Below are positions 19,306 through 38,300 of a stretch of DNA of 44,927 nucleotides, one piece after another (the first letter of the stretch is position 1; each line of letters begins with the position of its first letter). The notes under the pieces are model-generated. The model saw only the letters and a list, made by a program, of their open reading frames with translations, was not told where the DNA came from and made no database searches. The stretch is from IMG/VR virus record IMGVR_UViG_3300045988_159056; one strand, written 5' to 3'. The DNA comes from a virus. The translations under genes were made by a program, and so were the position numbers.

Positions 19306-19827
19306 ATGAAAAATGGAATCATACACTTACTTATTCTTATTTGTTTTGCAGCTTGTTTTTACGGTTGTCGTTCTCATCGCTCTGTTACGCGAGAAACGGT
19401 TACAGAAGCAACTGGAGAAGAAAAACAAACAACTGCTGATGGAGTTATCGAACTTGCGCGGAGAGATTCGGTCAGTGAGGAACATGTACTGCACGTTCAC
19501 CGGGAAGATAGTACGCATATCCGTATCAACTACGACAGCCTCGGAAGAATTAAAGAAATTGATTTCAGCAACCGAAAAACTGAAAAAAGAACTGGAAAAA
19601 ATCAAAGCAAATCCTATCAGGATCATAAAAAAACTGCCAGTCAACAGGAAACAACCGTTACCCGTAAATCCGACATTAAGCAGCAAAGCCAGGAAGAAAA
19701 AAAGACGGCAAACGGGTGTAGCTTATGGACGTTTTTAAAGTTCATGTTTTTCTTTCTATCCTTTTGTCTGATACATGATAATTGGGGTAAGATTAAAAAC
19801 TTTATTCGTCGGTTATGGAAAAAATAA
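19306..19827 (+). CDS. ORF with a lipoprotein-type signal and a C-terminal TM (u-spanin-like topology). It competes with the overlapping +1-frame ORF
   Basis: MKNGIIHLLILICFAACFYGC and a C-terminal WTFLKFMFFFLSFCLI. Fully overlaps ORF 19313-19738. Confidence 0.4.
   Translation: MKNGIIHLLILICFAACFYGCRSHRSVTRETVTEATGEEKQTTADGVIELARRDSVSEEHVLHVHREDSTHIRINYDSLGRIKEIDFSNRKTEKRTGKNQSKSYQDHKKTASQQETTVTRKSDIKQQSQEEKKTANGCSLWTFLKFMFFFLSFCLIHDNWGKIKNFIRRLWKK
19313..19738 (+). CDS. Alternative-frame ORF: N-terminal TM plus long coiled coil (i-spanin-like)
   Basis: YLFLFVLQLVFTVVVLIALL followed by REKRLQKQLEKKNKQLLMELSNLRGEI and SEELKKLISATEKLKKELEKIK. Its codons resemble the other coiled-coil genes here. 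Confidence 0.4.
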   Translation: MESYTYLFLFVLQLVFTVVVLIALLREKRLQKQLEKKNKQLLMELSNLRGEIRSVRNMYCTFTGKIVRISVSTTTASEELKKLISATEKLKKELEKIKANPIRIIKKLPVNRKQPLPVNPTLSSKARKKKRRQTGVAYGRF

Positions 19828-20093
19828 ACTTATACGTGGCTATTGAGCAAATGAAACATATTTCCGTTACCGGCGGAACGTTTTCCGTCAAATTCCGGAA
19901 ATGGAACAGACAGACACGGAACGGCGGCGATATGGTAATACTTACGGCCGCACGTTTGAGAAGGAAAGCCACGGACGAGAATATAGAAAATTCAAGCTAT
20001 AAACTATTCCTGACAGATACCACGACCGGACGCCCGCTTAATTGCTGGGAATGTCTTGTAATGGAGTTTAACGGGAAAAGAATAACTATTTAA
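19815..20093 (+). CDS. Hypothetical small basic protein
   Basis: 92-aa ORF immediately upstream of the portal candidate. Confidence 0.5.
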   Translation: MEKINLYVAIEQMKHISVTGGTFSVKFRKWNRQTRNGGDMVILTAARLRRKATDENIENSSYKLFLTDTTTGRPLNCWECLVMEFNGKRITI

Positions 20094-20097
20094 CATT

Positions 20098-21462
20098 ATG
20101 GAAATAAGACGAAGTGGAAACTTTGGAGTTATAGATACCGGAACCGGCAGAGGACTGATTTCCTTTTCTATTGGTGGACGCGGTAAGGGCTGGGAGCCTT
20201 CCAGTATCCAATTAAACCGGCGCGGCAGCTTCTTTTCGCGAAAAATAAGCGTTAACGGAACTTTCATCGTTCCAATGGGTGATAACAACGATATGCCGGG
20301 GGAAGTCATGCGCTTATTGGATAAATTTTACGCCGGTGAAGGTATTATGGGTAAGATTGCCGGTTTACAATGGGGAGAAGGGCCGCGATTGTATGAGGAT
20401 GCGATAGACGAAGAGAATAACCGTTTTTACCGACGTTGGAAACTCGATCCGAAAATAACGGCCGATCTGGAATCATGGGACTATACAACGGTTCTTCACC
20501 GTTCGCTTGTTGACCTTACACACATGCAGGGATTTTTCATAAAGTTTGTCCGGAACAGGGCACCGCGTATCGGCAATCCCGGACGTTTCGTCAGGCTGGA
20601 ACATATACCTTACCAGAAGGCGCGTCTGGTATATCCGCCTGATGGAGAGGACGAGCCGCAGGAAATACTTGTAGGTGATTTCCCTTATCCTGATCCGGCC
20701 TACACTTACCGATATCCTATATTCGATCCGGCAAATCCGTTTAAATATCCGGTTTCGGTAAAATACTATAATATTTATTCCTTTTGCAAGGATTTTATGA
20801 GTACACCGCGTTTTCTGGGAGCCTTGGACTGGTTGGAGCTGGCAGGCGGATTGGCTGATATTCTCATCTCTTATAACGAAAACGCTTCGGCTATCTCCTT
20901 ACACATAGAATCCCCGCAGGCCTATTGGGATAGAGCGGAGGAACGAATAAAGGGCGTTTGTGCTCAAACCGGTGAAACGTATTCAAATAAGATGTTGGAG
21001 GAGTTTAAGGACGCGGCTATGGAGAAATTCGCTTCTAATATTACAGGGAGAGAGAACGTCGGGAAATACATGCACACGACTAAGTTTTGGAATACGGAAG
21101 CGAATAATTTTGAGGGATGGACGGTAACACCGTTAGATAAAAAGATCAAGGATTACGTGGACGCCCAAATTAAGATATCAAACAAGGCGGACGCAGCTGC
21201 CACTTCCGGCTTCGGTCTTGATCCGGTGCTTTCAAACCTGATTATAGAAAACAAACTTTCTTCCGGATCAGAAAAATTATATAGCTTGAAAGTTTATAAC
21301 GCTTCCGAAACCGCTATACCGGATATGATTCTATGTAAACCGTTACAGCAGTATATCAATGCGAATTTTCCAGGAACTACTACAAAAGTGGGGCTTTACC
21401 GTACCATAGTGGAAGCCGAACAGAATGTTTCACCCTCTAACCGCATGAAGGAAAATGCGTAG
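20098..21462 (+). CDS. Portal protein candidate
   Basis: 454 aa. The only unassigned ORF of portal size, and it heads the morphogenesis block. No motif-level proof. Confidence 0.4.
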   Translation: MEIRRSGNFGVIDTGTGRGLISFSIGGRGKGWEPSSIQLNRRGSFFSRKISVNGTFIVPMGDNNDMPGEVMRLLDKFYAGEGIMGKIAGLQWGEGPRLYEDAIDEENNRFYRRWKLDPKITADLESWDYTTVLHRSLVDLTHMQGFFIKFVRNRAPRIGNPGRFVRLEHIPYQKARLVYPPDGEDEPQEILVGDFPYPDPAYTYRYPIFDPANPFKYPVSVKYYNIYSFCKDFMSTPRFLGALDWLELAGGLADILISYNENASAISLHIESPQAYWDRAEERIKGVCAQTGETYSNKMLEEFKDAAMEKFASNITGRENVGKYMHTTKFWNTEANNFEGWTVTPLDKKIKDYVDAQIKISNKADAAATSGFGLDPVLSNLIIENKLSSGSEKLYSLKVYNASETAIPDMILCKPLQQYINANFPGTTTKVGLYRTIVEAEQNVSPSNRMKENA

Positions 21463-22156
21463 TCTGTTTTTTATACCGAGAACGGAAGATGTGCCGGAGG
21501 AACCGGTAAGCGACCGACAACCGGAAGAGAACCGGGCCGATAACATCCCGGACAAACATATAAAGGCCCGCCGGACGAAAAACGTTCATTTTGACCGGCG
21601 GATAAAATCGGAATTGCATCTGGAAGAGTGTTTGCCATGGCATTTTGAGAAAGGGGCGGCATATCATTGTATCAGTCACGGGGATGTTGATAGCTTGACT
21701 TATCTTCGTGTGATCGTAAAGCAACAACCGGTGGAATATGTTTTAATTTCTACCTGGTGTATGGCAATTACCGATGTTAAGGAGGTGGAGAAATGGCTGG
21801 AGAGAAAAGACATAGGGCACGCGGATTTTTATGTAGGTGAAATATTTCAAGGTTCCTACGCGGATGTTTATTTATACCTAAAGAATGTGGCGGAACGTTT
21901 CGGATCACGTGTCTGTATCTTCCGTAACCATGCTAAAGTAATGGCCGGTTTTGGTAACGCTTTTGATTTTGCAATAGAAAGCTCGGCCAATATAAACACC
22001 AATCCGCGAACGGAGCAGACCTGTATAACGATAGATACCGGACTGGCCCGCTTTTATAAGGAGTTTTACGATGAAATAAACAGTTTTACAAAGGATTTTG
22101 ATAATTGGAAACCATATACCCTAAAAAGAGACCGAGCAAATGACGAAGTTATTTAA
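21455..22156 (+). CDS. Hypothetical morphogenesis-module protein
   Basis: 233 aa, overlaps the stop of the upstream gene. Confidence 0.5.
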   Translation: MRSLFFIPRTEDVPEEPVSDRQPEENRADNIPDKHIKARRTKNVHFDRRIKSELHLEECLPWHFEKGAAYHCISHGDVDSLTYLRVIVKQQPVEYVLISTWCMAITDVKEVEKWLERKDIGHADFYVGEIFQGSYADVYLYLKNVAERFGSRVCIFRNHAKVMAGFGNAFDFAIESSANINTNPRTEQTCITIDTGLARFYKEFYDEINSFTKDFDNWKPYTLKRDRANDEVI

Positions 22157-23090
22157 TAAAAACAATGATGGAGCCGGTGAAATTGTCCGTGTTCTGGGAT
22201 TGATCGACGATGATCTTGATTTTTCTAAATGGGAGCCTATCTTACCGCTAGGAATTCGGGATTTGCAGGCTATTATTGGCGTCGAACCTATCGACGCGAT
22301 AGATAAGTATTATCGGGAAGAACAAGAGCAAGGTGCGGGGATGGATAGTAAGACGGAAACCTTGCGCCTGATGCAGCAGGCGGTGGCCATGTTTACCTGG
22401 TTAAAAATTATCCCTACCCTGGACGCACAACACGGGACGGCCGGGCGTGGCAAACACCTGGGAGAGAATGAAACGGGCATGACCGCCTTACAGGAGTTCA
22501 AAGATGAAGAAAATATCCGGAATCTGGCTTATGAAGCTGTAGACGCGTTGGTGGAGTTGATGGATCGCGAAAAGTTCGATTTTTGGATAAAGGGCATTAA
22601 GAAGAAGGCTATAAACCGCCTTCTTATTCAGAATAAGGAAACGTTCGATGAATATTACAATATCGGAAGCCACCGGCTTTTCCTGGTGCTTATTCCTATG
22701 ATCCGGGAAGTACAGGACGGCCAGATAATACCGATTATCAACCGTGACCGCTATAACAAACTGATTGAGGGTGATACCGGTTTAACGGAAAAGCTGATAG
22801 AGTATGTACGTCGGCCACTCGCACTGCTTTCGATAAAAAAAGCGGTGGAACGCTTACCGGTGGAAATTCTGCCTAATGGAATCGTACAGGTACAACAGAG
22901 CACAACAGTACGGGATAAACTGCGGGCAGAAAAAGAGGCCCGGCAGTCAGTCGCTAAAAGTCTGGAACAGGACGCGGCGGCTTATCTGGATATCTTGCAG
23001 GATATTATCCGGGAACTGGATGCGGAAGTGGAACCGGCGGATTATTATATACCGGGAATTACCGTACAATCCAAAGGAATAACTTTTTAA
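22140..23090 (+). CDS. Hypothetical morphogenesis-module protein
   Basis: 316 aa, translationally overlapping its neighbours. Confidence 0.5.
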   Translation: MTKLFNKNNDGAGEIVRVLGLIDDDLDFSKWEPILPLGIRDLQAIIGVEPIDAIDKYYREEQEQGAGMDSKTETLRLMQQAVAMFTWLKIIPTLDAQHGTAGRGKHLGENETGMTALQEFKDEENIRNLAYEAVDALVELMDREKFDFWIKGIKKKAINRLLIQNKETFDEYYNIGSHRLFLVLIPMIREVQDGQIIPIINRDRYNKLIEGDTGLTEKLIEYVRRPLALLSIKKAVERLPVEILPNGIVQVQQSTTVRDKLRAEKEARQSVAKSLEQDAAAYLDILQDIIRELDAEVEPADYYIPGITVQSKGITF

Positions 23091-23099
23091 TGTCCGGAC

Positions 23100-23909
23100 A
23101 TGGAGAAGTTTACATATAATAATAAGACGGTAGAAATCCCTTCCTGTTTGGATGAGATCAATAGCGAGCAGTACAGGCAGTTTCTTATATTGTCGGTACT
23201 GATGAACCGCGGTACCATCACACCCGGACAGTTCCGCGTAAAATGGCTTTCTTTTCTTCTGGGAATGAAAGCGGATTATACAATATACCGGCGTGAGATC
23301 ATCCGGGAATTGGATGAGCAACTGGATAAACTGGACGGTTTTTTCTCTTATACAACCGGAAAAAATGGCGAACGGATTGTTACCCCCATTTTGAAAACCG
23401 GGTGTAACCTAATGCAAGACTTTGGAGGATGGCACGGTGTGGGTGATATGTTGAACGGTCTTACTTTTGGTAATTTCTGTGATTGTCTGGAATTATTGCA
23501 GCAATGTAAACTGGCGGCGGAAAATGACGATTCGGGAATAGATGAAATATTCCGGGAACTTACTTTAAAACTTTACCGGTACAAAGAACCGGAGAAGACA
23601 CCGGACGTTCCTTCCTTACTCGCCATTCATGCGATGAACTTCTTTTCCTCCGTTTGGGATATGATTCTTTCCCAACCTGTATATATCGGCGGGGAGGCTA
23701 TCGACTTTCGGATATTGTTCCAGAAGCTGGCATCCGAGGACCGGAAGGCGGACGATAAAACCGGCTGGACCGGGATAGTCTTTGAGGTGGCGGCTTCCGG
23801 CGTGTTCGGAAATAAGAAGGAGGTGGACGATACACCCTTTTGGGATGTATTGCTTTATCTGTATAAATGTAAGTTTGAGTATTTACACCAAAAACGTAAC
23901 AAGAAATGA
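23100..23909 (+). CDS. Hypothetical morphogenesis-module protein
   Basis: 269 aa. Its stop overlaps the lysozyme start. Confidence 0.5.
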   Translation: MEKFTYNNKTVEIPSCLDEINSEQYRQFLILSVLMNRGTITPGQFRVKWLSFLLGMKADYTIYRREIIRELDEQLDKLDGFFSYTTGKNGERIVTPILKTGCNLMQDFGGWHGVGDMLNGLTFGNFCDCLELLQQCKLAAENDDSGIDEIFRELTLKLYRYKEPEKTPDVPSLLAIHAMNFFSSVWDMILSQPVYIGGEAIDFRILFQKLASEDRKADDKTGWTGIVFEVAASGVFGNKKEVDDTPFWDVLLYLYKCKFEYLHQKRNKK

Positions 23910-24340
23910 GAACGACAACAGGAACAAAAAACAAGATCAAGAAATTCGAGGGGTTACGCCTGAAAGCGTATGTATGTGCCGCGGGAGTATGTACGATCGG
24001 TTACGGTCACACGATCGGCGTAAAACCGGGTGATGTTATCACCGAGGCCCAGGCCGATGCTTTCTTTGAATCGGATATCAGGGCGGTAGAAAACCAGGTA
24101 AACGCGCTTCCCCTTCATTTGGGACAGTACCAGTTTGACGCGGTAGTAAGCTTTTGCTTTAATGTAGGTATCGGAAAATTCAAGAAATCAACGCTTTATA
24201 AGAAGATCAGGACGGATGTGTATGATTCATCCATACCGGCAGAGTTTAAAAAGTGGATATACGGGGGCGGTAAGATTCTTCCGGGGCTTGTTACCCGCCG
24301 TGAATGGGAGGCGAAACGTTATCAGGGATTGACAATATGA
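23906..24340 (+). CDS. GH24 lysozyme (endolysin)
   Basis: KKFEGLRLKAYVCAAGVCTIGYGHT is the classic T4/lambda-type lysozyme signature. 144 aa. Confidence 0.9.
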   Translation: MRTTTGTKNKIKKFEGLRLKAYVCAAGVCTIGYGHTIGVKPGDVITEAQADAFFESDIRAVENQVNALPLHLGQYQFDAVVSFCFNVGIGKFKKSTLYKKIRTDVYDSSIPAEFKKWIYGGGKILPGLVTRREWEAKRYQGLTI

Positions 24341-24780
24341 TAGATATAAAGGTTTACCGTGAATACTGGGAAGGCGTGCAAAAACGTATTCCTGAAATAA
24401 AGAAAGTGCTACCCGTTACCATTGACGAGGAAATGAGTAAGACGATACAGGGACTATCAAAAGAAGAATGTCCGGTGCTCTTTATTCTGATCCCGTCGGG
24501 AACGGGTGCCAGCCTTTCGGCTGATAATGTGAGAGAAAATAATTTATGCGTTATTTTCCTTATGAGTAAGTACGATCCCCAACGGAAAGGGGCTTATGAG
24601 ACTATCGAAGAGGTGCAGCCGGTTATGGAGCGTATCAAACAAATGCTGATAGAAGATTCTGCCACCGGTTGCCCTGTCACTAAGGAACTGGATTTAACCA
24701 GCCTTTCCACTCTTCCGGAATCCGGCTTTTACCGGACGTTTGCAGGGTGGAGCCTGGCTTTCTCATTTAAAACAGAATAG
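24337..24780 (+). CDS. Hypothetical protein
   Basis: ATG 24337 in an ATGA overlap with the lysozyme stop. Soluble, 147 aa. Confidence 0.55.
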   Translation: MIDIKVYREYWEGVQKRIPEIKKVLPVTIDEEMSKTIQGLSKEECPVLFILIPSGTGASLSADNVRENNLCVIFLMSKYDPQRKGAYETIEEVQPVMERIKQMLIEDSATGCPVTKELDLTSLSTLPESGFYRTFAGWSLAFSFKTE

Positions 24781-24784
24781 CAAC

Positions 24785-24991
24785 ATGAAAAATAAACCCA
24801 AAGTTCCAACCTGTGGTAATTGTATCCATTTAAAAAAGAGAAACAATGATAAAACCATAATACGGTTGAAGTATGCGATAAGTATGTATTACTGCCCTAA
24901 CAGGTGGTGGTGCGGTGGAAAACCGCAAAATACAAATATTTGTGAACTGCATGAATTTAAATGCAAATATGACAAAGATAATGTTCAATAA
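24785..24991 (+). CDS. Small Cys-rich protein
   Basis: ATG 24785. CGNC...CPNRWWCGG...C..H..KC pattern suggests metal binding. Confidence 0.45.
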   Translation: MKNKPKVPTCGNCIHLKKRNNDKTIIRLKYAISMYYCPNRWWCGGKPQNTNICELHEFKCKYDKDNVQ

Positions 24992-25000
24992 AAATTAAAC

Positions 25001-25183
25001 ATGAATTTTACAGCTTGGTTTTTTATAACTGTAATAGTTACTATTGTTACCATTGGAGTAAATAGTACATTGTGCACCTATTGGGAATACAAGTATAAGT
25101 CGCAACAGGCTACAGAGAAAAAGCCCGATACGGAAGAAAAAGAGAGATGTCCCCGGATGAAAGTTACTGGTTTCAAACAATAA
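25001..25183 (+). CDS. Small single-TM protein (holin candidate)
   Basis: 60 aa with TM segment WFFITVIVTIVTIGV and a charged C-terminus. Lies 660 nt downstream of the lysozyme. Confidence 0.35.
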   Translation: MNFTAWFFITVIVTIVTIGVNSTLCTYWEYKYKSQQATEKKPDTEEKERCPRMKVTGFKQ

Positions 25184-25192
25184 TAGTTCATT

Positions 25193-25603
25193 ATGGCCGA
25201 GAACTTTAAAACGGATTTTTTTACCGACCGGATCGGGCGTGGAATACAGGACATATTTCAAGCCCAACTGGATATCGCTACCAAACGGATTTACCAGAAA
25301 GGCCGTAAGCGTAGGAAAGTACAGGGAACCGGGGAGATCATACAAGGGCGATCCGGTGCATTAATGGCCGCACTACAGAACCCGAATTATTCGGTCGTTC
25401 CAGACGGCGAAGGAGTAATCGCACGTTCTAACCTTCCATTATATACCCGCTTCCTGGATATGAAGAAACACGGTAATTACCAGATTTATAACCGGCAGAT
25501 ATACGGGATTCTATATCATGACACACTCGGGAAGATTAAATATGAATATCAGGATTATGTAAGGGAAAGGGTAAAAGAAATGTTTGCCAGTTCGCTAAAA
25601 TAG
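25193..25603 (+). CDS. Hypothetical protein (head-tail joining position)
   Basis: 136-aa ORF, last gene before the moron. Confidence 0.5.
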   Translation: MAENFKTDFFTDRIGRGIQDIFQAQLDIATKRIYQKGRKRRKVQGTGEIIQGRSGALMAALQNPNYSVVPDGEGVIARSNLPLYTRFLDMKKHGNYQIYNRQIYGILYHDTLGKIKYEYQDYVRERVKEMFASSLK

Positions 25604-25650
25604 GTAATAAAATTAATACCTAAATATTTGGAGGTAATGATTTTATTACC

Positions 25651-25658
25651 TATCTTTG
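25651..25658 (+). promoter_or_regulatory. -7 box tatctttg for the DUF4160/DUF2442 module
   Basis: Same octamer as at 462 and 5831. 27 nt before ATG 25685. Confidence 0.4.
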
Positions 25659-25684
25659 TATCAGTAATCAAAAGACAAAGTATA

Positions 25685-25924
25685 ATGCCAACAATATTTA
25701 TTTTATTCGGTTTTCGATTCATGTTTTATTCTAATGATCATGAACCTATACATGTACATGTAGTTAAGGGAAATGCTAAAGCTAAATTTACAATATTTCC
25801 CGTGAAGTTAGTTGAGAATAACGGATTGAAAGCGTCAGAATTAAAGCTCGTGGAATCTGTTATAGAAGAAAATCAGGAGATTATAGCAGAGCATTGGAAT
25901 AAATTTTTTAATGGTGTAAAATAG
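25685..25924 (+). CDS. DUF4160-family protein
   Basis: MPTIFILFGFRFMFYSNDHEPIHVHV matches the DUF4160 N-terminal signature (MP.I..F.G....y.nDH.PPHfH). Confidence 0.75.
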   Translation: MPTIFILFGFRFMFYSNDHEPIHVHVVKGNAKAKFTIFPVKLVENNGLKASELKLVESVIEENQEIIAEHWNKFFNGVK

Positions 25925-25931
25925 TGTAGTT

Positions 25932-26345
25932 ATGGAAGATATTATTAAAGTGGATAAAGTGTGGCTTACTGATACAGCTATATGTATACGTACTTCCGAC
26001 GGTAAGGAAGCAAGTGAAAAATTTGCCGATTTCCAGAGGTTAAAGTGGGCTACTCCGGAACAAAGGGGTAATTATGAAGTAACTCCTTATGGGATATATT
26101 GGCCGGAACTTGATGAAGATTTGAGTTTTGAGGGTTTTTTTATAAAAAAACAAAATAATGTGTTGTATGATTTATTTATAGCACATCCGGAACTTAATGC
26201 ATCTGCAATCGCTCGACGGCTGGGAATATCACAAAGTTTATTTGCCCAATATATAAGCGGAACAAAGAAACCTTCACAGGAGCGCGTAAACCTTATATTA
26301 GATACTATTAAAAATATAGGGAAAGAATTGATCGCGGCAATATAA
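25932..26345 (+). CDS. DUF2442 domain fused to a C-terminal XRE-type HTH
   Basis: N-terminus KVDKVWLTDTAICIRTSDGKE...YGIYWPELDEDLSFEGFF. C-terminus IARRLGISQSLFAQYISGTKKPS. Confidence 0.7.
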   Translation: MEDIIKVDKVWLTDTAICIRTSDGKEASEKFADFQRLKWATPEQRGNYEVTPYGIYWPELDEDLSFEGFFIKKQNNVLYDLFIAHPELNASAIARRLGISQSLFAQYISGTKKPSQERVNLILDTIKNIGKELIAAI

Positions 26346-26355
26346 AAAGACTTCC

Positions 26356-26589
26356 ATGTTACGGGTTATCGATGTAGATTATATCAAGGCTTATAAACTT
26401 GCTATAACTTTCAGTGACGGATGTAAGAAGAAAGTGGATTTAAAACCTTATCTTATGGGTGAGATTTTCGGAGAATTATTGGATGATGATAAATTTATTC
26501 AATATGGTTTAACTCGTGTAACAATCGAATGGGCGAACGGTGCGAACTTTGCACCAGAATTTTTGTATGAGATTGGTATAACCGTATAA
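26356..26589 (+). CDS. DUF2442-family protein
   Basis: VIDVDYIKAYKLAITFSDGCKKKVDL...IEWANGANFAPEFLYE. Confidence 0.7.
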   Translation: MLRVIDVDYIKAYKLAITFSDGCKKKVDLKPYLMGEIFGELLDDDKFIQYGLTRVTIEWANGANFAPEFLYEIGITV

Positions 26590-26601
26590 AATTAAGACGC
26601 T

Positions 26602-26844
26602 ATGAATATAACGTATGAAGATATTTTCTTTCTTATCGGCTTTTTCCTGGTAATAGCTTTTTTCGTAGGATGTAAGCATAAACCGGCTACTTTATCCGGG
26701 TGGCTTGCTTTTGCCTTTCTTTCCTTTACCGTGACGCCGCTTATATCGGTTCCTCTAACCTGGTACGTTTGCCGGATGATAGATCGGGCAACAATTAAGG
26801 ATAAAGAATGTTTTGATCCTTCGGATTTTACCTTTAAGAGATAA
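26602..26844 (+). CDS. Small multi-TM membrane protein
   Basis: 80 aa with two or three hydrophobic segments. Co-directional and followed by a terminator. Confidence 0.45.
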   Translation: MNITYEDIFFLIGFFLVIAFFVGCKHKPATLSGWLAFAFLSFTVTPLISVPLTWYVCRMIDRATIKDKECFDPSDFTFKR

Positions 26845-26869
26845 AATACTTTCTTCTTAGTATAATAAG

Positions 26870-26898
26870 CCTGTAGAATGGTTCTACGGGCTTTTTTT
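26870..26898 (+). terminator. Rho-independent terminator closing the moron
   Basis: cctgtagaa pairs with ttctacggg, then a T7 run. Confidence 0.6.
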
Positions 26899-26927
26899 GT
26901 GTCCTTTTCCGCCATTTTGCACCAGGA

Positions 26928-26935
26928 TAATTTTG
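26928..26935 (+). promoter_or_regulatory. -7 box taattttg upstream of the tape-measure gene
   Basis: TAnnTTTG match 20 nt before ATG 26955. Confidence 0.4.
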
Positions 26936-26954
26936 CCTTATAAAATTTAAGTTT

Positions 26955-29900
26955 ATGGCAAAATTAAAACCTGACTACATCGAATGGGTGTTAACCCTGA
27001 ACGCATCCGACGCACAGAAAGAAATACATAATCTTTCAGAAAAAAACAAGGAACTCCGGGATAGCAATAAGGAGATAAAAAAGTCCATGACCGATTTAAT
27101 CGCCGCCGGAAAAGCCGGTGGTAAACAATGGAAAAATCTAAATGAACGGCTGAAAGAGAATAATAAAACGATCGGTGAAAATAATAAGAAAATTGCCGAG
27201 TGCGAGAAACGGTTGGATAAAACCACCATGAGCGCGAACCAGCTTGCCAGGAAAGCCAATGCCTTACGGAAAGAGCTTCGCGATACGGTGAAATCCTTGC
27301 AACCGGAAAGATATGCCGCTCTGGAAAAAGAACTGAAAGAGGTAGAGAAAGCATACGGGCAGGCAACGAAAAAAGCCGAAGGGTTCGGTTCTTCCCTTCT
27401 TTCCTTGAATAAGATAAAAACAGTTCTGGCCGGTGTGTTTGTAACTATCGGTGCGATGATTACCGGGCAAATTGTCGGCGGGTTGAGAGATGCAATCAGT
27501 ACTATTGTGGAGTTTGAGAAGAAAAATAGTACTTTGGCCGCTATCCTGGGAACCACGAAAAAGAGTATCAAAGATTTAACGGATGAAGCGCGCCGACTGG
27601 GTGCTACTACTTCTTACACAGCCGCACAGGTAACGGAACTTCAGATAGAGCTTGCCAAGCTGGGATTTTTTAAGGAAGATATTAAAGCGATGACGCCTTC
27701 CGTGTTGAAATTCGCTAAGGCGGTAGACACGGATCTTGCTTCGGCTGCTACGCTTGCCGGTGCAACATTGCGTATTTTCAATCTTGATGCAGAAGATACG
27801 GAACGGGCTGTTTCTACCATGACTATGGGATGTAACGCATCCGCTTTAAGTTTTGAATATTTAAATACCGCTATGTCTACCGTTGGTCCGGTTGCTAATT
27901 CCTTCGGATTCACGATCGAAGAAACTACCGCTCTTTTGGGGGCTTTGGCAAACAGCGGTTTCGACGCTTCTTCCGCAGCAACGGCAACGCGTAATATCCT
28001 GCTTAATCTGGCTGACGGTACCGGCAAGCTTGCTCTTGCGCTTGGCGGTCCGGTTAATAACCTGGCGGATTTGGTAAAGGGACTTAAAAAGTTAAACGAT
28101 GAAGGAATAGACTTGAACAAAGCTCTTGAAATGACCGATAAACGTTCCGTTGCAGCCTTTAATACTTTCCTTAACGGGACTGATACCGTATTGGCTCTTT
28201 CCGGTGCGGTTACGGGTGCGGAAGACGCTTTTAACGCCATGGCCGAAGAAATGGGTGACAACGTGCAGGGATCATTAAACGTATTAAGTTCCACTATTGA
28301 AGGAGTTGTTTTACGGTTCTACGAATCGAAGGGAATTTTACGTGATTTGATCGATTTTGTTACATTCCTGGTAGAAGGCGTTGGTAACATGATTGATATG
28401 TTTAATAAATGGGGAGTTGTCACTTATACCGTTACAGCTTATCTGGTTGCTTATTACGGCGGGTTGAAGATCGCTACTATGTGGCAGGCGCGTTTTAAAA
28501 CGGCTACGCTTGCTTCGGTTGTCGCTGAAAAGGCGCACGCCGTACAGCTATATATTAGCCGTGCGGCTGCTTTGGCTTATGCGGCAGCCCAGGCGTTACT
28601 ACACAAAAATACTACCAGATGTACGGCAGCACTTCGGTTAATGAGGATCGAACTTTTGAAGAATCCTTATACGGCTTTGGTTGCGGTTATATTGGCGGCG
28701 GGAGTTGCTATTTACCAACTTGTTAAAAAAAATAAGGAGGCGACAGAATCGGTTAAAGCCTTGGGATCGGCAATGGAAAGAACTACAAAACGATATGATG
28801 AACAGAAAGCGAAAGTTAAAGCTTTGATTGACGCCATACATGATGAAAATATTTCCAATACATTACGGGAAAAGAAAATACGTGAATTGAAAGAGCTAAT
28901 TCCCGATTATAATGCGGAGTTAAGCAAGGAAGGAAAGGTTATACGAGAAAATAAAAAAGCCATAGACGAATATTTAACTTCCCTGGAAAAACAGATAAAG
29001 GCGGAAGCATTCAGGGAAGAACTGATCGAGTTATACAAAAAGAAATTTCCGAAAGAAAGGGAATTGGAAAAGAATAAAGAGGAAGAAGCAAAGGCTTCCA
29101 ATTCCTTAGCCGGTGCACGTATTGGGGCTTCCATGCGTTCTTCCACTCTTTCAACACCCGGGACAAAAACTCTTAATCAGGGCTTAGACCAGAATGTTAA
29201 GAGCATGGAAACAGAGTATCGAAATGCCAAAAAGAAAACGGAACAAACCGAGAAGGATTTAAAGGAAATAACAGACGCTATTGCTGTTATTAATCGGGAA
29301 CTTTTAACTACGGAAATGCAAATTTCATCCGTAGGTACCACTAACGTAGACAACGTAGTAAAAGAAACTTCAAAAATTAAACTATTGGAGGCTGAAAAGA
29401 AAAAGGTTCAGGAACAGTGGGCGGAAGACAGCGAAGCGAATATCGCCAAGAAAAACAAGGAAATAGAACGCATTGACGCTGAAATAAAACGTTTAAATGA
29501 ACTGGGGAAGGTCAAAAAGAAAGCGGAAGCTGGGGAGTATAAAAATACGGAAACGGACGCTACATTAAAACCTCTGGAGATTGAACATCAAAAACGTATG
29601 CTTCTTATCAAACAGAACCGGGAGAAGGAAAATAAGACGGAAGCCCAGTACATTCTCGAAGGGACGGCGGAAAATCTTCGTTATTACCGGGAACGTATTA
29701 ACGCACTTCAAAAACTGGAGGCAAAAACACCGGCTAATAAAAAGAAATTACTCGATGAAATCCATAAACTCGAAACCGAGGCGGAAACCGCTATTTTTAC
29801 AGAAACCGGCAAACAGGAAGACGCCCGTATCAAGCTGGCACAAGAGAAACGGGATGAACGGTTAAAGATTGAAACCGCTTATTACAATATCCAGAAGGAC

Positions 29901-31298
29901 ACCATGGAAAAAGCGGTATTAAATCAAAGTATTACACAGGAAGCGGCTGACGCCTATATGCTGGAAGTTGAAGCGGAACACACTGCGGAACTCCTGGAAA
30001 TAAACCGTACCTATCAGAATGATATAAACGCTTTGGAATTTAGCGGGGAACAGAAACGACTGAACGCGGTTACGGAAGCGGCGGATGCTGTTCGTAATTC
30101 TGAAATGCAATTATTACGGGATAGAGCGGCTATTGCTCAAAAAGTTCGTGAAATAACATCCGTTCCGATAGGAATAACCGGTATGCAAGAGGCACACCGG
30201 AAACAGGTTCAGGATGTAGAAACGACTTATAACGCCATAATTGAGATAGCAAGACAGGCCGGGATTTCTACGGTCAGTCTGGAAAAACAAAAGCAACAGG
30301 AAATTAATCGGTTAGATTTCCAGTATCAGAATGATTTATACCAGATACAAGCACAAATCGGCGTATCATGGGCACAAGAATACCAAAACGAACTGGCATT
30401 ATTAAGAAACTTACACGATCAGGGATTAATAAACGAAAAGACATATCAGCGTAAGAAGCTGCAACTGCAGATGAATAATGCTAAAAAATACTTTGACTAT
30501 TATTCCGGTCTTTCCTCTTCCATGGTGGAAGCTATTCAGCAAGCCGAAATCGACCAGGTGGAAGCGAAATACGATGTTCTCATACAAGAGGCTGAAAACA
30601 ACGGGGAAGATACTGCCGCTTTGGAAGAAGAGAAAGAAAATAAGAAACTGGAGATTCAAAAGAAGTATGCGGATGTAAATTTTGCCATCAAATGTTCCCA
30701 GATCATAGCAGATACGGCCGTTTCAATAATGAAAGCATATGCAGACCTCGGCCCCATTGCCGGAACCGTAGCTGCAGTAATGTTGGGGGCTACCGGTATT
30801 GCCCAGCTTGCATCCGCTAAGGCCGAACGGGATAGAATTAAAAATATGTCCCTGAAAAATACTACCGGTAGCAAAAAAAATACGGCGGAGCGTGTTGTTT
30901 CCGGATCTTCCGGTGGGGGATACTCGGAAGGTGGTTATACCGGTCCCGGTGGTCGTTATGAAGTGGCCGGAGTTGTTCACAAAGGGGAATATGTCGTACC
31001 ACAACCGGAGATGAATAATCCTAAAGTAATTGACGCGGTTAGCACGATCGAAGCGATCCGGCGGCAGCGTACCAGTGCCAACCCATTACCACAAAACCCG
31101 GGTGAATATGCGGAAGGCGGTTACGTCACTTCTCCTGCAGGGGATTCTTCTTACCGGGAGTTTCTGGAAGCAACTAAAGAGCTTCGCGCCTCTTGTGAGG
31201 CTATCAAGCTTATAAAGGCTTATATCGTATACCAGGATTTGGAAAAGGCTAAAGAAACCATAGATAACGCCCGCGATACCTTTACACGCGGAAAATAA
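26955..31298 (+). CDS. Tail tape measure protein
   Basis: 1447 aa. Long coiled coils, a TP901-type core (AILGTTKKSIKDLTDEARRLGATTSYTAAQVTELQIELAKLGF), central TM segments and a Gly-rich C-terminus. Confidence 0.9.
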   Translation: MAKLKPDYIEWVLTLNASDAQKEIHNLSEKNKELRDSNKEIKKSMTDLIAAGKAGGKQWKNLNERLKENNKTIGENNKKIAECEKRLDKTTMSANQLARKANALRKELRDTVKSLQPERYAALEKELKEVEKAYGQATKKAEGFGSSLLSLNKIKTVLAGVFVTIGAMITGQIVGGLRDAISTIVEFEKKNSTLAAILGTTKKSIKDLTDEARRLGATTSYTAAQVTELQIELAKLGFFKEDIKAMTPSVLKFAKAVDTDLASAATLAGATLRIFNLDAEDTERAVSTMTMGCNASALSFEYLNTAMSTVGPVANSFGFTIEETTALLGALANSGFDASSAATATRNILLNLADGTGKLALALGGPVNNLADLVKGLKKLNDEGIDLNKALEMTDKRSVAAFNTFLNGTDTVLALSGAVTGAEDAFNAMAEEMGDNVQGSLNVLSSTIEGVVLRFYESKGILRDLIDFVTFLVEGVGNMIDMFNKWGVVTYTVTAYLVAYYGGLKIATMWQARFKTATLASVVAEKAHAVQLYISRAAALAYAAAQALLHKNTTRCTAALRLMRIELLKNPYTALVAVILAAGVAIYQLVKKNKEATESVKALGSAMERTTKRYDEQKAKVKALIDAIHDENISNTLREKKIRELKELIPDYNAELSKEGKVIRENKKAIDEYLTSLEKQIKAEAFREELIELYKKKFPKERELEKNKEEEAKASNSLAGARIGASMRSSTLSTPGTKTLNQGLDQNVKSMETEYRNAKKKTEQTEKDLKEITDAIAVINRELLTTEMQISSVGTTNVDNVVKETSKIKLLEAEKKKVQEQWAEDSEANIAKKNKEIERIDAEIKRLNELGKVKKKAEAGEYKNTETDATLKPLEIEHQKRMLLIKQNREKENKTEAQYILEGTAENLRYYRERINALQKLEAKTPANKKKLLDEIHKLETEAETAIFTETGKQEDARIKLAQEKRDERLKIETAYYNIQKDTMEKAVLNQSITQEAADAYMLEVEAEHTAELLEINRTYQNDINALEFSGEQKRLNAVTEAADAVRNSEMQLLRDRAAIAQKVREITSVPIGITGMQEAHRKQVQDVETTYNAIIEIARQAGISTVSLEKQKQQEINRLDFQYQNDLYQIQAQIGVSWAQEYQNELALLRNLHDQGLINEKTYQRKKLQLQMNNAKKYFDYYSGLSSSMVEAIQQAEIDQVEAKYDVLIQEAENNGEDTAALEEEKENKKLEIQKKYADVNFAIKCSQIIADTAVSIMKAYADLGPIAGTVAAVMLGATGIAQLASAKAERDRIKNMSLKNTTGSKKNTAERVVSGSSGGGYSEGGYTGPGGRYEVAGVVHKGEYVVPQPEMNNPKVIDAVSTIEAIRRQRTSANPLPQNPGEYAEGGYVTSPAGDSSYREFLEATKELRASCEAIKLIKAYIVYQDLEKAKETIDNARDTFTRGK

Positions 31299-31307
31299 AT
31301 AACCATT

Positions 31308-33455
31308 ATGCTAAAGATCAAGACGAATAAAGGATATTTGGATCTAGGAGGGGATTTTACCATGCAAATAGATGAAAAGTCCCCGGTAATGAATGACAGA
31401 GGAACGCAGACGGTACCCGTAACCGTTCCTTATACTCCAAATAATGCAAAATTAACGGGGTTTGCACATCGGATCGACCTTTGCCGTAAACCGCTTGCGG
31501 ATGATGCGACGTGTACCGTCCTGGATGGGGTTTATAAACGGACCGGAAAAATAAATATCGTTTCAGCCGGAAAAAAAGAAGGTACGACTTTCAATATAGG
31601 TTTTGATAATTCCGAAGCTTACAACGCATGGAAAGCCAAGAAATTAAACTCCATGGAATTACCTGTAAAGGAATATAGCAGCGTTACTTCTTTGTGTACC
31701 CATCTGTTACAGGTTCTAAACGGATATAAGACGGATTTTGCGGTATTCCAAATAATGACGGCTAACGAATCCCTGAACGGTGTTTCTTATCCGAAGTATC
31801 TTAACTATATTTATCCGACAGCAGAGGGAAGTACTATTTATAAGTTGAGATATGAAGCAAGACAGGAAACATTTTTAGTAAATGGCACTCCAACGGAAGT
31901 AACTTTGCCTTTAGGCTATGGTATTACCGCTTTTTTATATGTATGGCGTGTGCTGGAACTTATTTTCTCGGAGTTCGGATATACTATTTTGGAAAACCCA
32001 TTTAAAACGGATAAGGATCTTTCCCGACTTGTAATATTAAACAATGCAGCCGATTGTTGCGTAAAAGGGGTATTGAAATATGCGGATTTAATGCCGGATT
32101 GTACCGTAGAAGACTTCCTGAACGCTTTATATGTTCGTTTTGGTATGGTATATAATGTATCATCCGATACTATGACGGCTACGATCCGACTTATCAGGGA
32201 TATAATAAAATCATCTCCGGATATTGATTTTTCCAAAGAGATAACCGCTTATCCTATTACCACCTATGAAACTGCCAAACAGATAAAGTTATCGGCAAAA
32301 ACTTCATTTACCGGTGCAGCTCCTTCCGTGGAACGCCTGGAAGATTATTTGAAAGAAAATCAGAATATTGCAAAATTGAACAGGGTTGACACTTCAAAAC
32401 GTGTGAACTATCTTAATTTTGAGAAAACAACCGGCAAATGGTATAAGTGGGATTCTGAAAACAACCGGCTTACTTATTCGTCTTCCAGCTTCTTTAATTG
32501 GGACAGGAAAACCGGCAATATAGAAGATAATGAATTATCCAGTGATGACGAATGTGTGCCGATGGATTTTGCCGCGAACAATATTCTTACACCTCAATAT
32601 CTTGCTTCTTATGTACATCGGTATACTTATTTGAAGAACAACAATACCTCCAGTTCTGATGAAGATTCAGAAAGCGAGGAAACACCGCTTTCTTTTGCCT
32701 TCTCTTTTGTAGGTACGGCGAATTGTGGTTATCCTTTCGGTAGTTCTCTTTCTGTTGGACCATCTGGTGACAATGTACGTTTTTATGACGGAACAGAACA
32801 TAAAATATCCCTTCTTTTCCAATTTGAGAACGGATTATTTGTGAACTTTTGGAAAGGATACGACGCTGTTTTAAGACATTCTTTTAATCAGATAGAAGCA
32901 AATATACTACTTCCGATTCATAGTATTGCGAAAATAGATCTCCTTAACACCGTATCACTATGCGGGCAGATATTGCTTCCCGATAGTCTCTCTTATTCAT
33001 TACCGGCAAATAAGATTGTTCCGGTAAATCTTATGTTGCGGACACTTCGGTTAATTGAACCTTATAATCTTGATGAAGAACATTATATCCCGAATTTTGG
33101 AAATACTTTGTATATATGGGAGTTTAGAAGTACGGATATAGAAAGTATGATGGAAAAGGAAAAAGAAAGAGCTTATCATGAAGCTTGGACACCTGGCGCA
33201 ACTAAAATAGAATTCGTCGAATATAGTTATTCCATAGATGGGTATACAAACAGGCATAACGATAATTACCTTGTTGAAAATTATCCGGACAATGAGGAAG
33301 CAACACTGGTTCGAACATATAGATGTAAGACCTCTGTTACTTTTAAGATATATAGCTATATATCAAATCCCAATGATCCGATATCTTATAATAAAACTAT
33401 CGAATCGGAAATAGAATATACGGATACATTTATATCAGTTCTATATAATGGATAA
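31308..33455 (+). CDS. Tail tip/baseplate protein (Dit/Tal position)
   Basis: 715 aa, directly after the tape measure. Confidence 0.5.
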   Translation: MLKIKTNKGYLDLGGDFTMQIDEKSPVMNDRGTQTVPVTVPYTPNNAKLTGFAHRIDLCRKPLADDATCTVLDGVYKRTGKINIVSAGKKEGTTFNIGFDNSEAYNAWKAKKLNSMELPVKEYSSVTSLCTHLLQVLNGYKTDFAVFQIMTANESLNGVSYPKYLNYIYPTAEGSTIYKLRYEARQETFLVNGTPTEVTLPLGYGITAFLYVWRVLELIFSEFGYTILENPFKTDKDLSRLVILNNAADCCVKGVLKYADLMPDCTVEDFLNALYVRFGMVYNVSSDTMTATIRLIRDIIKSSPDIDFSKEITAYPITTYETAKQIKLSAKTSFTGAAPSVERLEDYLKENQNIAKLNRVDTSKRVNYLNFEKTTGKWYKWDSENNRLTYSSSSFFNWDRKTGNIEDNELSSDDECVPMDFAANNILTPQYLASYVHRYTYLKNNNTSSSDEDSESEETPLSFAFSFVGTANCGYPFGSSLSVGPSGDNVRFYDGTEHKISLLFQFENGLFVNFWKGYDAVLRHSFNQIEANILLPIHSIAKIDLLNTVSLCGQILLPDSLSYSLPANKIVPVNLMLRTLRLIEPYNLDEEHYIPNFGNTLYIWEFRSTDIESMMEKEKERAYHEAWTPGATKIEFVEYSYSIDGYTNRHNDNYLVENYPDNEEATLVRTYRCKTSVTFKIYSYISNPNDPISYNKTIESEIEYTDTFISVLYNG

Positions 33456-35304: not shown

Positions 35305-38300
35305 ATGGATATAAAGAATTTTAAAGACGGTGATTCAGGGAAGGAAGTTCGCCAGTGTATTGAGGAAAATTTTAAAAACCTGAACGAATTTAAGACGGGG
35401 TATCAGGATAAGGTTGACGGACCGGACGGAAAATCCTCTATTTTACGTTCGTTTGCTTCCGAAGCTGACAGGGATCTATACGAATCGGACACGGAGAAGT
35501 ATGCGGCTAAATTGCTATATCAGGTTATCATACCGGCCATGAACGCTTCCTCCAGTATAGCGACTTTACGGATATCCGTAACGGAAGCACCGTCCGCGAT
35601 TGTGGCGGAAAACGCACGGGTAGCACTGGGATTTACTTATTACTCGTTTTACGATGAAATAACGGAACCGAACGCGACAAAAGGCGTCGTTAAGTTTACA
35701 ATTAACGGAACACAGGTCGCCGACCTGACAAGTGAACTTGTACACCGTGAAAGTTATGTGTTTGACTTGACACCTTATTTGATCGTAGGGGATAATAGTA
35801 TAATTGCTATCGTGAACAATAACGACGGATCGCAGCGTACGCTTTCCTATAATGTAAGTGTAAGGCAGCTTTCTGTTTCCCTTGTCGGTTTTAACCAGAT
35901 GGAGGCAAAGGCGGGAGCTTTTAATATAACGGCTAAAGTTGTGGGATCGGCGGCAACTGTATTTGTATTGGTGGACGAACAGCAAGTGGCGGCAGGCACC
36001 GTTAACGCCGGGGCACAACGGGCATTTGTCATTCCGGCACAGGAAACAAACGGGGTGCATACAATTTCGATTTACGCGACGGCTACGGACGTAGCGATAA
36101 CGACAGACACGCAAGTGTATGAGTTTATTTCGGATGTTGACGGATCACCGGCTATCGGAGTGGATTTTCCCGTTCAGGCGGCAACGGTCTATGATACCAT
36201 TGTTTTAAGATATTGGGTGTTCAGTAAAGCCGTCGAGGGAGCAATACCGGTAAGAATGAGCATAGAATCATCCGACGGGCAGGAATTGTTTGCGGGAGAG
36301 GATAACGTAACGTTGACCGGCGGAGTTTCCGCGATGACCGCCTGGAATATCCCATTAACAAACGAAGAGTATATCGGTGATATAACCCTGGTGCTGGAAG
36401 CGGCTGGCGTAAGAAGGGAATTGCCGTTACATGTCAATATGATTGATGATGTAACCCTTGCACCTGCGAGTGATTGCCGTTTATTCCTTGCATCCGCCGG
36501 ACGTTCCAATACCGCATCAAACAAGGCGCAATGGATCAGCAAAGAGAAGGACGCACCGGAAATTGCGGCCATTTTCTCGGAAAGCTTTGATTTTTCGGAA
36601 AACGGAAGCGGCTGGAATACGGACAGCGACGGAAATGTGGCGTGTCATATCAGAAGCGGGGCACGCGTTACCATACCTTATACGCCTTTTGATAAAAATT
36701 ACGGGCAAGGTAATGACTTGGATAATCCGGGAACCAAGACGGGTAAAATGATAGAAGTGGAACTGGCAACACGTAATTGTGTAAACATGAATGCGCCGGT
36801 TCTTACCTGTTATGATTCGGTTAACGGTGTGGGTATTAAAATTTTTGCCAACGGTACGACTTTTTCTTCTTCCGGATCATCCACGTTTACAGACTTTAAA
36901 GAGGAAACCCACATAAGACTTGGATTTATGGTCGAATGTGACGAACAGGCCGACCGCTGTTTTATGTCTGTAATTGCCGACGGTGTACCACAAGGAATTA
37001 CGGTATATAGCAAGGCGGACACCTTCAAACAGGCAACCCCGCAGCAAATTGTGATCGGTTCCGATGAATGTGATGTGGATCTATATGCGATCCGTGTCTA
37101 TGACAAAAGCCTTACTATACAGGAGATTATAGGAAATTATGCTTATGATACCCCGAAAGCGGCCGATAAAGTGGCAATTGCCCGGAGAAATGACGTTTTC
37201 GATAATGCGGGTAATGTCAATTATGCGAAATTGCGCAAGGCACTTCCGAATCTTCCGATCCTGGTACTGGAAACTCCATCCTTACCGGCAGTAAAAGGGG
37301 AAAAAACACCGGTACCAAGTACCACCTTTGAAAACCCGCTTTCTACGGGGGTGGATGATGCACCCTCATTTACTGCGGAAAATGCGGTGAATGATGTACA
37401 AGGTACGTCTTCTTCCAAAATCGAGGCGACGGAACCGGAGGGGGAGTTCAAATACCGGAACTACAAGGAAGATTATAAAGAAGGATTCCTTCCGGTCGGA
37501 TTGCCGGAAAAATTAATCAAATACCAGTTGAAGAAAGGGTTGCCCGGCGAAAAGAAATTTTGCTATAAAATAAATTATATGTCTTCCGAGATGTGTAATA
37601 ATACCGTCCTTGCAGAATTGTATAACCGTGTGGCCGTCAGTGCGGGACTTCTTACCGGGCCACAGCAGGAACAGGAGGAAGAAGGGAAGGAAGTGACATA
37701 CCGACAGACTATTTTCGGTTTTCCCATGTGCATATATTGGAAGAAACCGGGAGAATCCCGGATGAAATACGTCTCAATGTTCGATTTCAACAATGACAAG
37801 GGAAACTTGAATATACTTGGTTTTGACCGGGACAAATATCCGAAGGCTGAAATATGGGAAGTATCGGACAATATTACATTTTTCGATCATCCATATCGGG
37901 GATGTTGGGTGGATGAAACGGGTAAAATCCAGAACGACATAACGGCGGAGTTTGAAAGCCGGTTGCCGGGAGATTCGGAGGTAAACGAGGATTGCGCATA
38001 CGGGGAAGCTAAGACAGAAGGACAGGTGGAACAGGCTAATAAGGAATGCGCCTCCCTTGTACGCTTCTGTAATTGGATGTATTCAACTAATCAGGAATTA
38101 GCAACAGGGAAACCCCTTTCACAAACATACACAGATAAGGACGGAAAAGAATATACGGTCGATAATGCGTCTTATCGCCTGGCTAAATTTTTGACGGAGA
38201 AAGACGAGTATCTGGACTGGGAAAAGGTGACATATTACTACAATTTCACGGCACGCCACCTGATGATTGATTCCCGGGCAAAAAATATGCACCTGGTAAC

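Follow-up and report, generated by a model that had tools for sequence, protein, structure and literature searches.

The DNA analysed here is IMG/VR record IMGVR_UViG_3300045988_159056 (the window, 44,927 nucleotides (nt), to which all coordinates refer), and comes from a temperate phage or prophage of Bacteroides. The window encodes a portal protein, a lysozyme and a PhageMin_Tail tape-measure protein, carries a tyrosine integrase gene at its end, and is 88% identical over positions 20000-32000 to Bacteroides phage BT-TP2. The latter infects B. thetaiotaomicron, is temperate, and has a twin inducible by mitomycin as well as numerous relatives in gut phage databases (PMC12694917); the presence of an integrase together with this temperate relative indicates that the host element is itself temperate. 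Positions 25602-26898 of the + strand hold a Bacteroides-type promoter, four tightly packed genes (intergenic gaps of 7, 10 and 12 nt) and a strong terminator, inserted between a conserved phage gene and the tape-measure gene. Based on a comparison set of about 240 related loci overall, we propose that this region is a moron whose core is a two-gene type II toxin–antitoxin module of the DhiT/DhiA superfamily, a reading to which we assign a probability of roughly 0.7. The features on which it draws are the following.

25193..25603 (+): up136, a conserved phage gene of 136 amino acids (aa) forming the left flank, its stop codon directly preceding the variable slot
25602..25621 (no strand): O1, upstream operator-like palindrome AGGTAAT-N6-AATACCT, one mismatch from a perfect palindrome
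25627..25658 (+): predicted Bacteroides-type promoter, with a -33 TTTG at 25627-25630, a 20-nt spacer and the -7 box TATCTTTG at 25651-25658
25632..25651 (no strand): O2, perfect palindrome AGGTAAT-N6-ATTACCT, filling the promoter spacer and overlapping the -7 box
25685..25924 (+): putative toxin gene, DUF4160/DhiT-like (Pfam PF13711), 79 aa, ATG start at 25685, "W subtype"
25932..26345 (+): DUF2442::HTH fusion, 137 aa, the predicted cognate antitoxin and presumed autorepressor, with DUF2442 at residues ~7-70 and an XRE-type helix-turn-helix (HTH) at residues ~77-136
26356..26589 (+): stand-alone DUF2442 protein, 77 aa, "DUF2442b" (Pfam DUF2442, E 5.2e-11)
26602..26844 (+): small membrane protein, 80 aa, with two hydrophobic segments at residues 8-24 and 34-52
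26867..26898 (+): predicted intrinsic terminator, with a 12-base-pair (bp) stem (26867-26893), a 3-nt loop and a T-run
26955..31298 (+): tape-measure protein gene forming the right flank (Pfam PhageMin_Tail, E 1.1e-33)

The features described in a first-pass annotation are all found at the coordinates given there; its start of the unit, at 25651, has to be moved to about 25602, since an operator-like palindrome lies upstream of the promoter.

The first gene encodes a protein matching Pfam DUF4160 (E 1.2e-20, 73.8 bits for a cutoff of 23) and, over its full length, the NCBIfam model toxin_DhiT (NF048015, E 2.3e-9). Three of its histidines, H19, H23 and H25, are invariant in 37 homologues and are also conserved in a second DUF4160 subtype, TP2, the toxin of which is 32% identical to the W toxin over 38 residues. 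A ratio of nonsynonymous to synonymous substitution rates (dN/dS) of 0.18 indicates purifying selection, and the AlphaFold2 model comprises five strands and two helices (predicted local distance difference test score (pLDDT) 86.6). Longer versions of this open reading frame (ORF), of 95 or 98 aa, were rejected, as they would begin upstream of the -7 box with the promoter inside the gene, and chromosomal homologues start with MPTIF. Also set aside was a relation to histidine-triad (HIT) proteins, for which the recurrent Foldseek matches were weak (TM-score 0.4-0.5, probability at most 0.2) and not trusted.

The second gene starts after a 7-nt gap and encodes a protein that matches Pfam DUF2442 (PF10387, E 3.2e-13) and evolves under purifying selection (dN/dS 0.11). 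Its AlphaFold2 model (pLDDT 87) consists of a beta-rich N-terminal domain followed by four helices, the latter spanning residues 77-136 at pLDDT 82-92. In Foldseek searches, the whole model matched PDB entry 2AUW, a DUF2442 protein with an HTH, and its N-terminal half matched the DUF2442 structures 2x8n and 3k8r. By sequence, the only PDB match of the fusion was 2x8n at E 0.02, and a PDB profile search built from eight fusion proteins returned no match.

This pair of genes belongs to a family for which experimental data exist. In Dickeya dadantii 3937, DhiT was reported in 2021 to be toxic in both Dickeya and E. coli, a toxicity abolished by co-expression of DhiA; the dhiTA genes are co-transcribed with the toxin first, and DhiA represses their promoter, the toxin–antitoxin complex doing so more strongly (PMC8198452). 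In 2025, a tandem of DUF4160 (87 aa) and DUF2442 (92 aa) genes on a Thermus thermophilus plasmid was found to confer better persistence, and its second gene could not be deleted (PMC12724237). The first-pass description of DUF4160 and DUF2442 as experimentally uncharacterised is thus superseded: they are the DhiT/DhiA type II toxin–antitoxin proteins (PMC8198452, PMC12724237), for which NCBIfam models exist. Its proposal of a toxin–antitoxin-like layout is in turn strengthened by the toxin-first order, the tight spacing, the distant membership of the DhiT/DhiA family, and the replacement of the cassette by HicAB in sister phages (see below). The window resembles dhiTA in having a DUF4160 toxin gene followed by a DUF2442 antitoxin gene on the same strand at tight spacing (7-12 nt in the window), and differs in its toxin partner, a DUF2442::HTH fusion undetected by the DhiA model, in its Bacteroidota host and temperate phage carrier, and in the extra antitoxin of another subtype. 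The Thermus module is likewise a DUF4160-DUF2442 tandem on a mobile element, where the pair stabilises the replicon (PMC12724237), although that element is a plasmid rather than a phage and neither an HTH fusion nor a third gene is described there. A single database protein combines both domains in one chain (P0210, 219 aa, from an ENA contig of 1.5 kb), and is either a natural toxin–antitoxin fusion or a sequencing frameshift.

Partner statistics further define the core of the module. The fusion is the sole partner of the W toxin in 75 of the 80 metagenomic loci retrieved with the window's toxin, as well as in loci L081-L086, and contigs from metagenome-assembled genomes labelled Paraprevotella and Marinifilaceae carry the toxin and fusion genes alone between housekeeping genes. 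DUF2442b is added in just two of the 80 toxin loci, both belonging to the same phage as the window. Conversely, a genome scan with DUF2442b yielded 34 close loci across Bacteroidales, about 27 of which have it directly 3' of a TP2-type toxin and none directly 3' of a W-type toxin, while five lack a toxin and three carry toxin remnants. No similarity was detected by BLASTP between DUF2442b and the DUF2442 domain of the fusion. Since the W toxin pairs with the fusion alone and DUF2442b with the TP2 toxin, what the first-pass annotation had taken for a three-part system is more plausibly a two-gene module, complete in itself, to which a heterologous orphan antitoxin has been joined, DUF2442b being probably, from this distribution, an antitoxin of the TP2 DUF4160 subtype whose own toxin is absent here. 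An alternative is a true three-component system in which both DUF2442 proteins control the W toxin, for instance through a hetero-oligomer of DUF2442b and the fusion's DUF2442 domain. Arrangements of toxin, DUF2442b and DUF2442::HTH do exist in chromosomes (L087, and a toxin-less variant in L117) and in one class of sister phages (class C below), so that both DUF2442 types co-occur repeatedly, and DUF2442b is intact and in the same operon in the window. The toxin of such three-gene loci is, however, always of the TP2 subtype, DUF2442b never follows the W toxin outside the window phage, and its dN/dS is 0.50 as compared to 0.11-0.18 for its neighbours (window versus L055, with just 12 substitutions), all of which makes a three-component system unlikely. 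The W pair was also seen in a different mobile-looking element (L150, metagenome contig OIWQ01001331.1, 2501-3160), with the same palindrome and next to an HTH regulator and unassigned ORFs, which implies that the module moves between elements. Among 50,697 deposited phage genomes, a homologue of the W toxin was detectable in two, so that isolates other than BT-TP2 contributed little to the comparison.

The DNA upstream of the toxin gene carries a candidate regulatory signal. Allowing up to two mismatches, AGGTAAT-N6-ATTACCT has only two matches in the whole 44.9-kb window, O1 and O2, which lie 30 bp apart; 0.24 matches were expected, and two were reached in 3 of 100 shuffles. Of 79 homologous toxin genes, 68 are preceded by this palindrome or one closely resembling it, with TAnnTTTG following in 61 cases. 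Where 700 bp or more of upstream sequence was available (61 loci), at least 35 distinct upstream contexts could be told apart. Palindromes of the O2 type are also found in the chromosomal loci L083-L086. The core conserved with the W toxin and DUF2442::HTH is GGTAAT-N6-ATTACC, inside the promoter. O2 is the presumed binding site of the HTH antitoxin. The first-pass suggestion of autoregulation fits a palindrome that sits within the promoter and is kept with the gene pair in so many genomic contexts, and autorepression via the HTH, still a prediction, is well supported by sequence. A conserved motif, GTAATCAA, was also noted just 3' of the -7 box (25659-25672 in the window, ~290-305 in L158) in the phage and in other W-type loci, and resembles a third operator half-site or a transcription start region.

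To place the cassette in its phage lineage, the slot downstream of up136 was surveyed with the up136 protein as probe. This protein has no family match in Pfam, PHROGs or NCBIfam. It is conserved at 87-99% identity across 62 close relatives, a value that falls to about 49% in distant ones. The survey gave 79 IMG/VR loci, including 60 with both a probe 87-99% identical and a readable slot, and the contents of the slot fell into six classes.

Class A, 3 loci and the window: W toxin, DUF2442::HTH, DUF2442b
Class B, 24 loci including BT-TP2: TP2 DUF4160 allele, DUF2442b-type protein, 75-aa HTH-only protein
Class C, 5 loci: TP2 toxin, DUF2442b, DUF2442::HTH
Class D, 22 loci: HicA and a HicB-position protein with a C-terminal HTH
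Class E, 6 loci: a second HicA and its partner
Class F, 16 loci with a probe ~49% identical: empty slot, the tape-measure gene following about 116 bp after the probe gene

The slot is never empty in the 60 close relatives, which carry either a HicA-type (28) or a DUF4160-based (32) cassette, and sister phages that exchange one for the other have flanks 97-99% identical. The HicA calls rest on Pfam HicA_toxin (PF07927; E 8.5e-10 for class D and 4.4e-15 for class E). Neither Pfam nor NCBIfam gave a HicB match for the proteins at the HicB position in sister phages, whose presumed antitoxin role is accordingly deduced from position. HicAB is a textbook toxin–antitoxin pair; that it fills this slot behind a promoter of the same layout argues strongly, on comparative grounds, for an equivalent function of the DUF4160 cassette. 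In detail, the HicAB cassettes (L004-L007, L045, L058-L062 and others) share with that of the window the position, the promoter type, the toxin-first order, an antitoxin with a C-terminal HTH, and a palindrome present twice, in the promoter spacer and again further upstream; one HicB-position protein also ends in ~13 residues that nearly match the C-termini of the DUF2442::HTH proteins. They differ in that HicA and the neutralising domain are unrelated to those of the window, and in their operators (GCAAATTTGC and ATAGTAAAATTACTAT).

Across classes A to E, which are otherwise unrelated, the TTTG and TAnnTTTG columns of the promoter are invariant. A palindrome always sits at one and the same place in this promoter and differs in sequence between cassettes (GCAAATTTGC in class D, ATAGTAAAATTACTAT in class E), the HTH and the palindrome both being common to classes A, B and C. 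The palindrome hence varies together with the HTH type. Where the W toxin is replaced by the TP2 toxin and DUF2442b, either the fusion is kept (class C) or its HTH half alone (class B), a pattern that would be expected if the DUF2442 half neutralises the W toxin and the HTH half regulates the shared promoter. Class B, with HTH-only regulator, DUF2442b and toxin as separate proteins, is reminiscent of the omega-epsilon-zeta toxin–antitoxin systems, which consist of three separate proteins (regulator, antitoxin and toxin), although the protein families are unrelated and regulator and antitoxin are fused in the window. Taken together, these comparisons indicate that in close relatives the slot is a site at which predicted toxin–antitoxin cassettes are exchanged, and its constant occupancy and rapid exchange suggest a role in competition or defence.

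The whole block from the up136 stop codon to the terminator is an addition, because the DNA just beyond the terminator corresponds by homology to the short stretch between up136 and the tape-measure gene in the cassette-less class F relatives. Its G+C content is 0.30-0.38, as compared to 0.44-0.49 in the flanks. The terminator has a folding z-score of -5.2 and is conserved in 47 related loci, and an Rfam scan of 25000-27500 gave no match near any gathering score. The designation as a moron, already made in the first-pass annotation, is consistent with all of these features: a promoter and a terminator of its own, whose activity is predicted, lower G+C content, absence from the 16 distant relatives, exchange in the close ones, and a temperate host element. 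Two side observations concern the promoter of the next gene: in cassette-less relatives the tape-measure gene is immediately preceded by a promoter close to consensus, TTTG-N18-TATTTTTG (L063, ~4450-4510), and the homologous stretch of the window (26896-26954) retains just a TAATTTTG box (26928-26935), without a properly spaced -33.

These comparisons also bear on two readings in which the cassette is no toxin–antitoxin module in service. First, it could take part in lytic development, as tail assembly chaperones or as a late-gene regulator, given its location among the late/tail genes immediately 5' of the tape-measure gene, a place occupied by chaperone genes in many siphoviruses. But HicAB substitutes for it between flanks that are nearly identical, nothing lies there in distant relatives, the same two genes occur between housekeeping genes in bacterial chromosomes, and the block has its own promoter and terminator. 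Tail chaperones were rejected on the comparative grounds of the HicAB swaps, the empty relatives and the chromosomal copies, and we regard any lytic role as barely credible. Second, the genes might be an inert remnant, intact by chance, unexpressed or no longer toxic, and without present function. Chromosomal toxin–antitoxin loci often decay, and remnants and orphans of this family are indeed seen (L093, L095, L117). This fate is nevertheless improbable for a block with four intact ORFs, a toxin and a fusion under the purifying selection noted above, three invariant histidines, and a promoter and perfect palindrome that are conserved, in a slot that is always occupied in close relatives.

Several observations weigh against a DhiT/DhiA-type module in this place. 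The toxin scores 37.7 bits with toxin_DhiT, short of the equivalog cutoff of 100; DUF2442b matches antoxin_DhiA (NF048016) at E 1.1e-12 with 48.6 bits for an equivalog cutoff of 200; and the fusion, the proposed cognate antitoxin, is not matched by the antoxin_DhiA model at all. With scores this far below the equivalog cutoffs, the window genes are distant superfamily members of DhiT/DhiA and not equivalogs. The toxin model had no PDB match with E below 0.7 in Foldseek, in agreement with the published lack of structural homologues. The C-terminal HTH of the fusion remains under the Pfam cutoffs (18.5 versus 23 bits for HTH_3, 17.5 versus 27 for HTH_31). The full promoter consensus occurs just twice in the window and is not significant on its own. 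The terminator lies amid late structural genes, so that tape-measure expression in lytic growth would have to get past it. Finally, a PADLOC search (PADLOC-DB 2.0) of the four proteins gave no match below E 0.01 and no Menshen components, and so lends no support to a defence role in particular. The domain calls made in the first pass are correct: DUF4160 and the two DUF2442 domains are well above their Pfam cutoffs, whereas the HTH is not and instead draws its support from AlphaFold2 and Foldseek: the modelled C-terminal half is superposable on XRE/lambda-repressor domains, matching 3bs3 (root-mean-square deviation (rmsd) 1.6), 3omt, HigA2 (5j9i) and lambda repressor (3kz3, rmsd 1.6) with probabilities of 0.92-0.99 and E-values of 0.3-0.7, which supports the assignment. 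The closest precedent for the whole fusion, NE0471 of Nitrosomonas europaea (2AUW, a "putative DNA binding protein"), also combines a DUF2442 fold with an HTH (134-139 aligned columns, probability 1.00), but its identity of ~15% and low TM-score of 0.36 imply that the domain arrangement differs.

From the domains, gene order, regulatory sequences, slot exchange and partner statistics, we infer the following course of events for the two-gene module. In a lysogen, the Bacteroides sigma-type promoter TTTG-N20-TATCTTTG would drive the toxin gene first and then the antitoxin gene. The N-terminal DUF2442 domain of the antitoxin would bind and neutralise the toxin, while its C-terminal XRE-type HTH would bind O1 and O2; with O2 located in the promoter spacer, the antitoxin or the toxin–antitoxin complex could shut the promoter off. 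If the antitoxin supply failed, either through loss or curing of the prophage or because an invading phage stops host expression, free toxin would arrest growth, probably by acting through the invariant His19/His23/His25 cluster on a nucleic-acid target. The enzymatic, nucleic-acid-directed nature of this activity is a guess by analogy, made because of the invariant histidines and of the company DUF4160 keeps in Menshen proteins. There, DUF4160 is the NsnC effector domain of antiphage systems, replacing PIN, BECR, Toprim or PLD nuclease domains (PMC12065111). Menshen thus shares the toxin domain and offers the sole hint at an activity and a defence link, although DUF4160 there lies within a larger defence protein and is not a free toxin with a DUF2442 partner. 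As for the biological role of the module in the window, defence or competition against other phages would be our leading candidate, at somewhat less than even odds, followed by prophage stabilisation as a plausible second, with neutral selfish persistence accounting for the rest. The first-pass annotation had named abortive infection, exclusion or addiction as candidate roles, of which addiction is equally classical for toxin–antitoxin modules.

The third gene, DUF2442b, would then either be left over from cassette exchange or serve as a spare antitoxin to a TP2-type toxin. In a more active version of the latter, it would be retained as a weapon that counters addiction or abortive infection by neutralising the TP2-type DhiT toxin of sister prophages or of the host, such that the phage could superinfect cells carrying this toxin or displace prophages encoding it. 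The TP2 toxin occupies the same slot in the commonest sister phages (29 of the 60 loci) and is found in many Bacteroidales chromosomes, DUF2442b genes that lack a toxin are found repeatedly in genomes (L097, L107, L109, L110, L116), and the copy in the window is full length in an expressed-looking operon. Then again, it is only ~76% identical to the class B and C antitoxins, which makes cross-neutralisation uncertain, and its relaxed dN/dS fits a decaying relic equally well. We consider such a weapon possible but doubtful. A similarly tentative extension would see the slot as an arms-race locus between sister prophages of a phage lineage that is very common in gut Bacteroides, in which each holds its host or aborts rivals and DUF2442b disarms the TP2-type toxin.

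The DhiT/DhiA family is already known, and the phage-borne cassette with its spare antitoxin of a second subtype is a further member of it. The superfamily is nonetheless barely studied, and the present locus documents its occurrence in temperate phages of human gut Bacteroides that form a widespread lineage. The comparative series, with its two toxin subtypes, antitoxins with or without an HTH and with or without a DUF2442 domain, orphan antitoxins, and HicAB replacements under one promoter layout, points to a likely operator, a likely toxin-binding domain and likely catalytic histidines. Should the orphan antitoxin cross-neutralise the sister toxin, this would be a clear natural case of antitoxin-based prophage competition in the gut; otherwise, the cassette would be an ordinary, well-annotated toxin–antitoxin moron.

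The fourth gene, for an 80-aa membrane protein, is real: 27 distinct sequences have 18, 13 and 47 variable sites at the first, second and third codon positions, with a dN/dS of 0.19. An antisense ORF of 107 aa over the same DNA (26592-26915) was rejected, as substitutions track the codon phase of the + strand and the ORF is cut off in L062. The protein is found behind every cassette type at 79-95% identity, has no family match, and is represented by only 35 clusters in a database of 5.8 billion sequences, all at least 63% identical. In classes C, D and E, a hairpin lies between the cassette and this gene, whereas in the window the gene follows DUF2442b after 12 nt without a hairpin in between, and should thus be co-transcribed with the cassette there. 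The first-pass annotation had counted this gene as part of the mobile module; as a constant, lineage-restricted neighbour of every cassette type, it is by its distribution a lineage-specific backbone gene of this phage clade, outside the swappable putative toxin–antitoxin unit. An analogy may be drawn with the moron gene 15 of HK97, which encodes a small inner-membrane superinfection-exclusion protein, is expressed from the prophage, and lies between the tail chaperone and tape-measure genes (PMC3594210). The slot, directly upstream of the tape-measure gene, is in a comparable place, and HK97 gp15 resembles the 80-aa protein in position and physical character; this is an analogy only, with no sequence relationship found between the two proteins and no toxin–antitoxin link in HK97. 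In two class A loci (L055, 5873-6271, and L056), an extra 132-aa ORF without a family match lies between the membrane-protein and tape-measure genes, which points to a second site of insertion there.

Other parts of the window gave a few further observations. A low-G+C stretch (0.31-0.35) of about 220 bp at 24780-25000 separates a DUF1834-like gene from a 60-aa gene; the BT-TP2 counterparts of these genes abut, so that the stretch is apparently absent there. The stretch, which holds a cysteine-rich ORF (24740-24991), may represent a second small insertion. A 92-aa ORF at 19815-20093 (+) occupies the position of BT-TP2 gp27, annotated as "Maintenance system killer protein"; Pfam and NCBIfam support no family for this ORF, and an annotation of the gp27 type is unverified. 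The window also contains a diversity-generating retroelement, with a pair of 106-nt repeats (40603-40708 and 41197-41302) that are 94% identical; at all six differing positions the downstream repeat, which is the template, has an adenine. The upstream, variable repeat forms the 3' end of a gene at 35305-40713 for a protein of 1802 aa with an Lcl_C-like C-terminus. An RVT_1 reverse transcriptase ORF follows at 41116-42528, and because this 470-aa version overlaps the template repeat, the true start is probably later than 41116.

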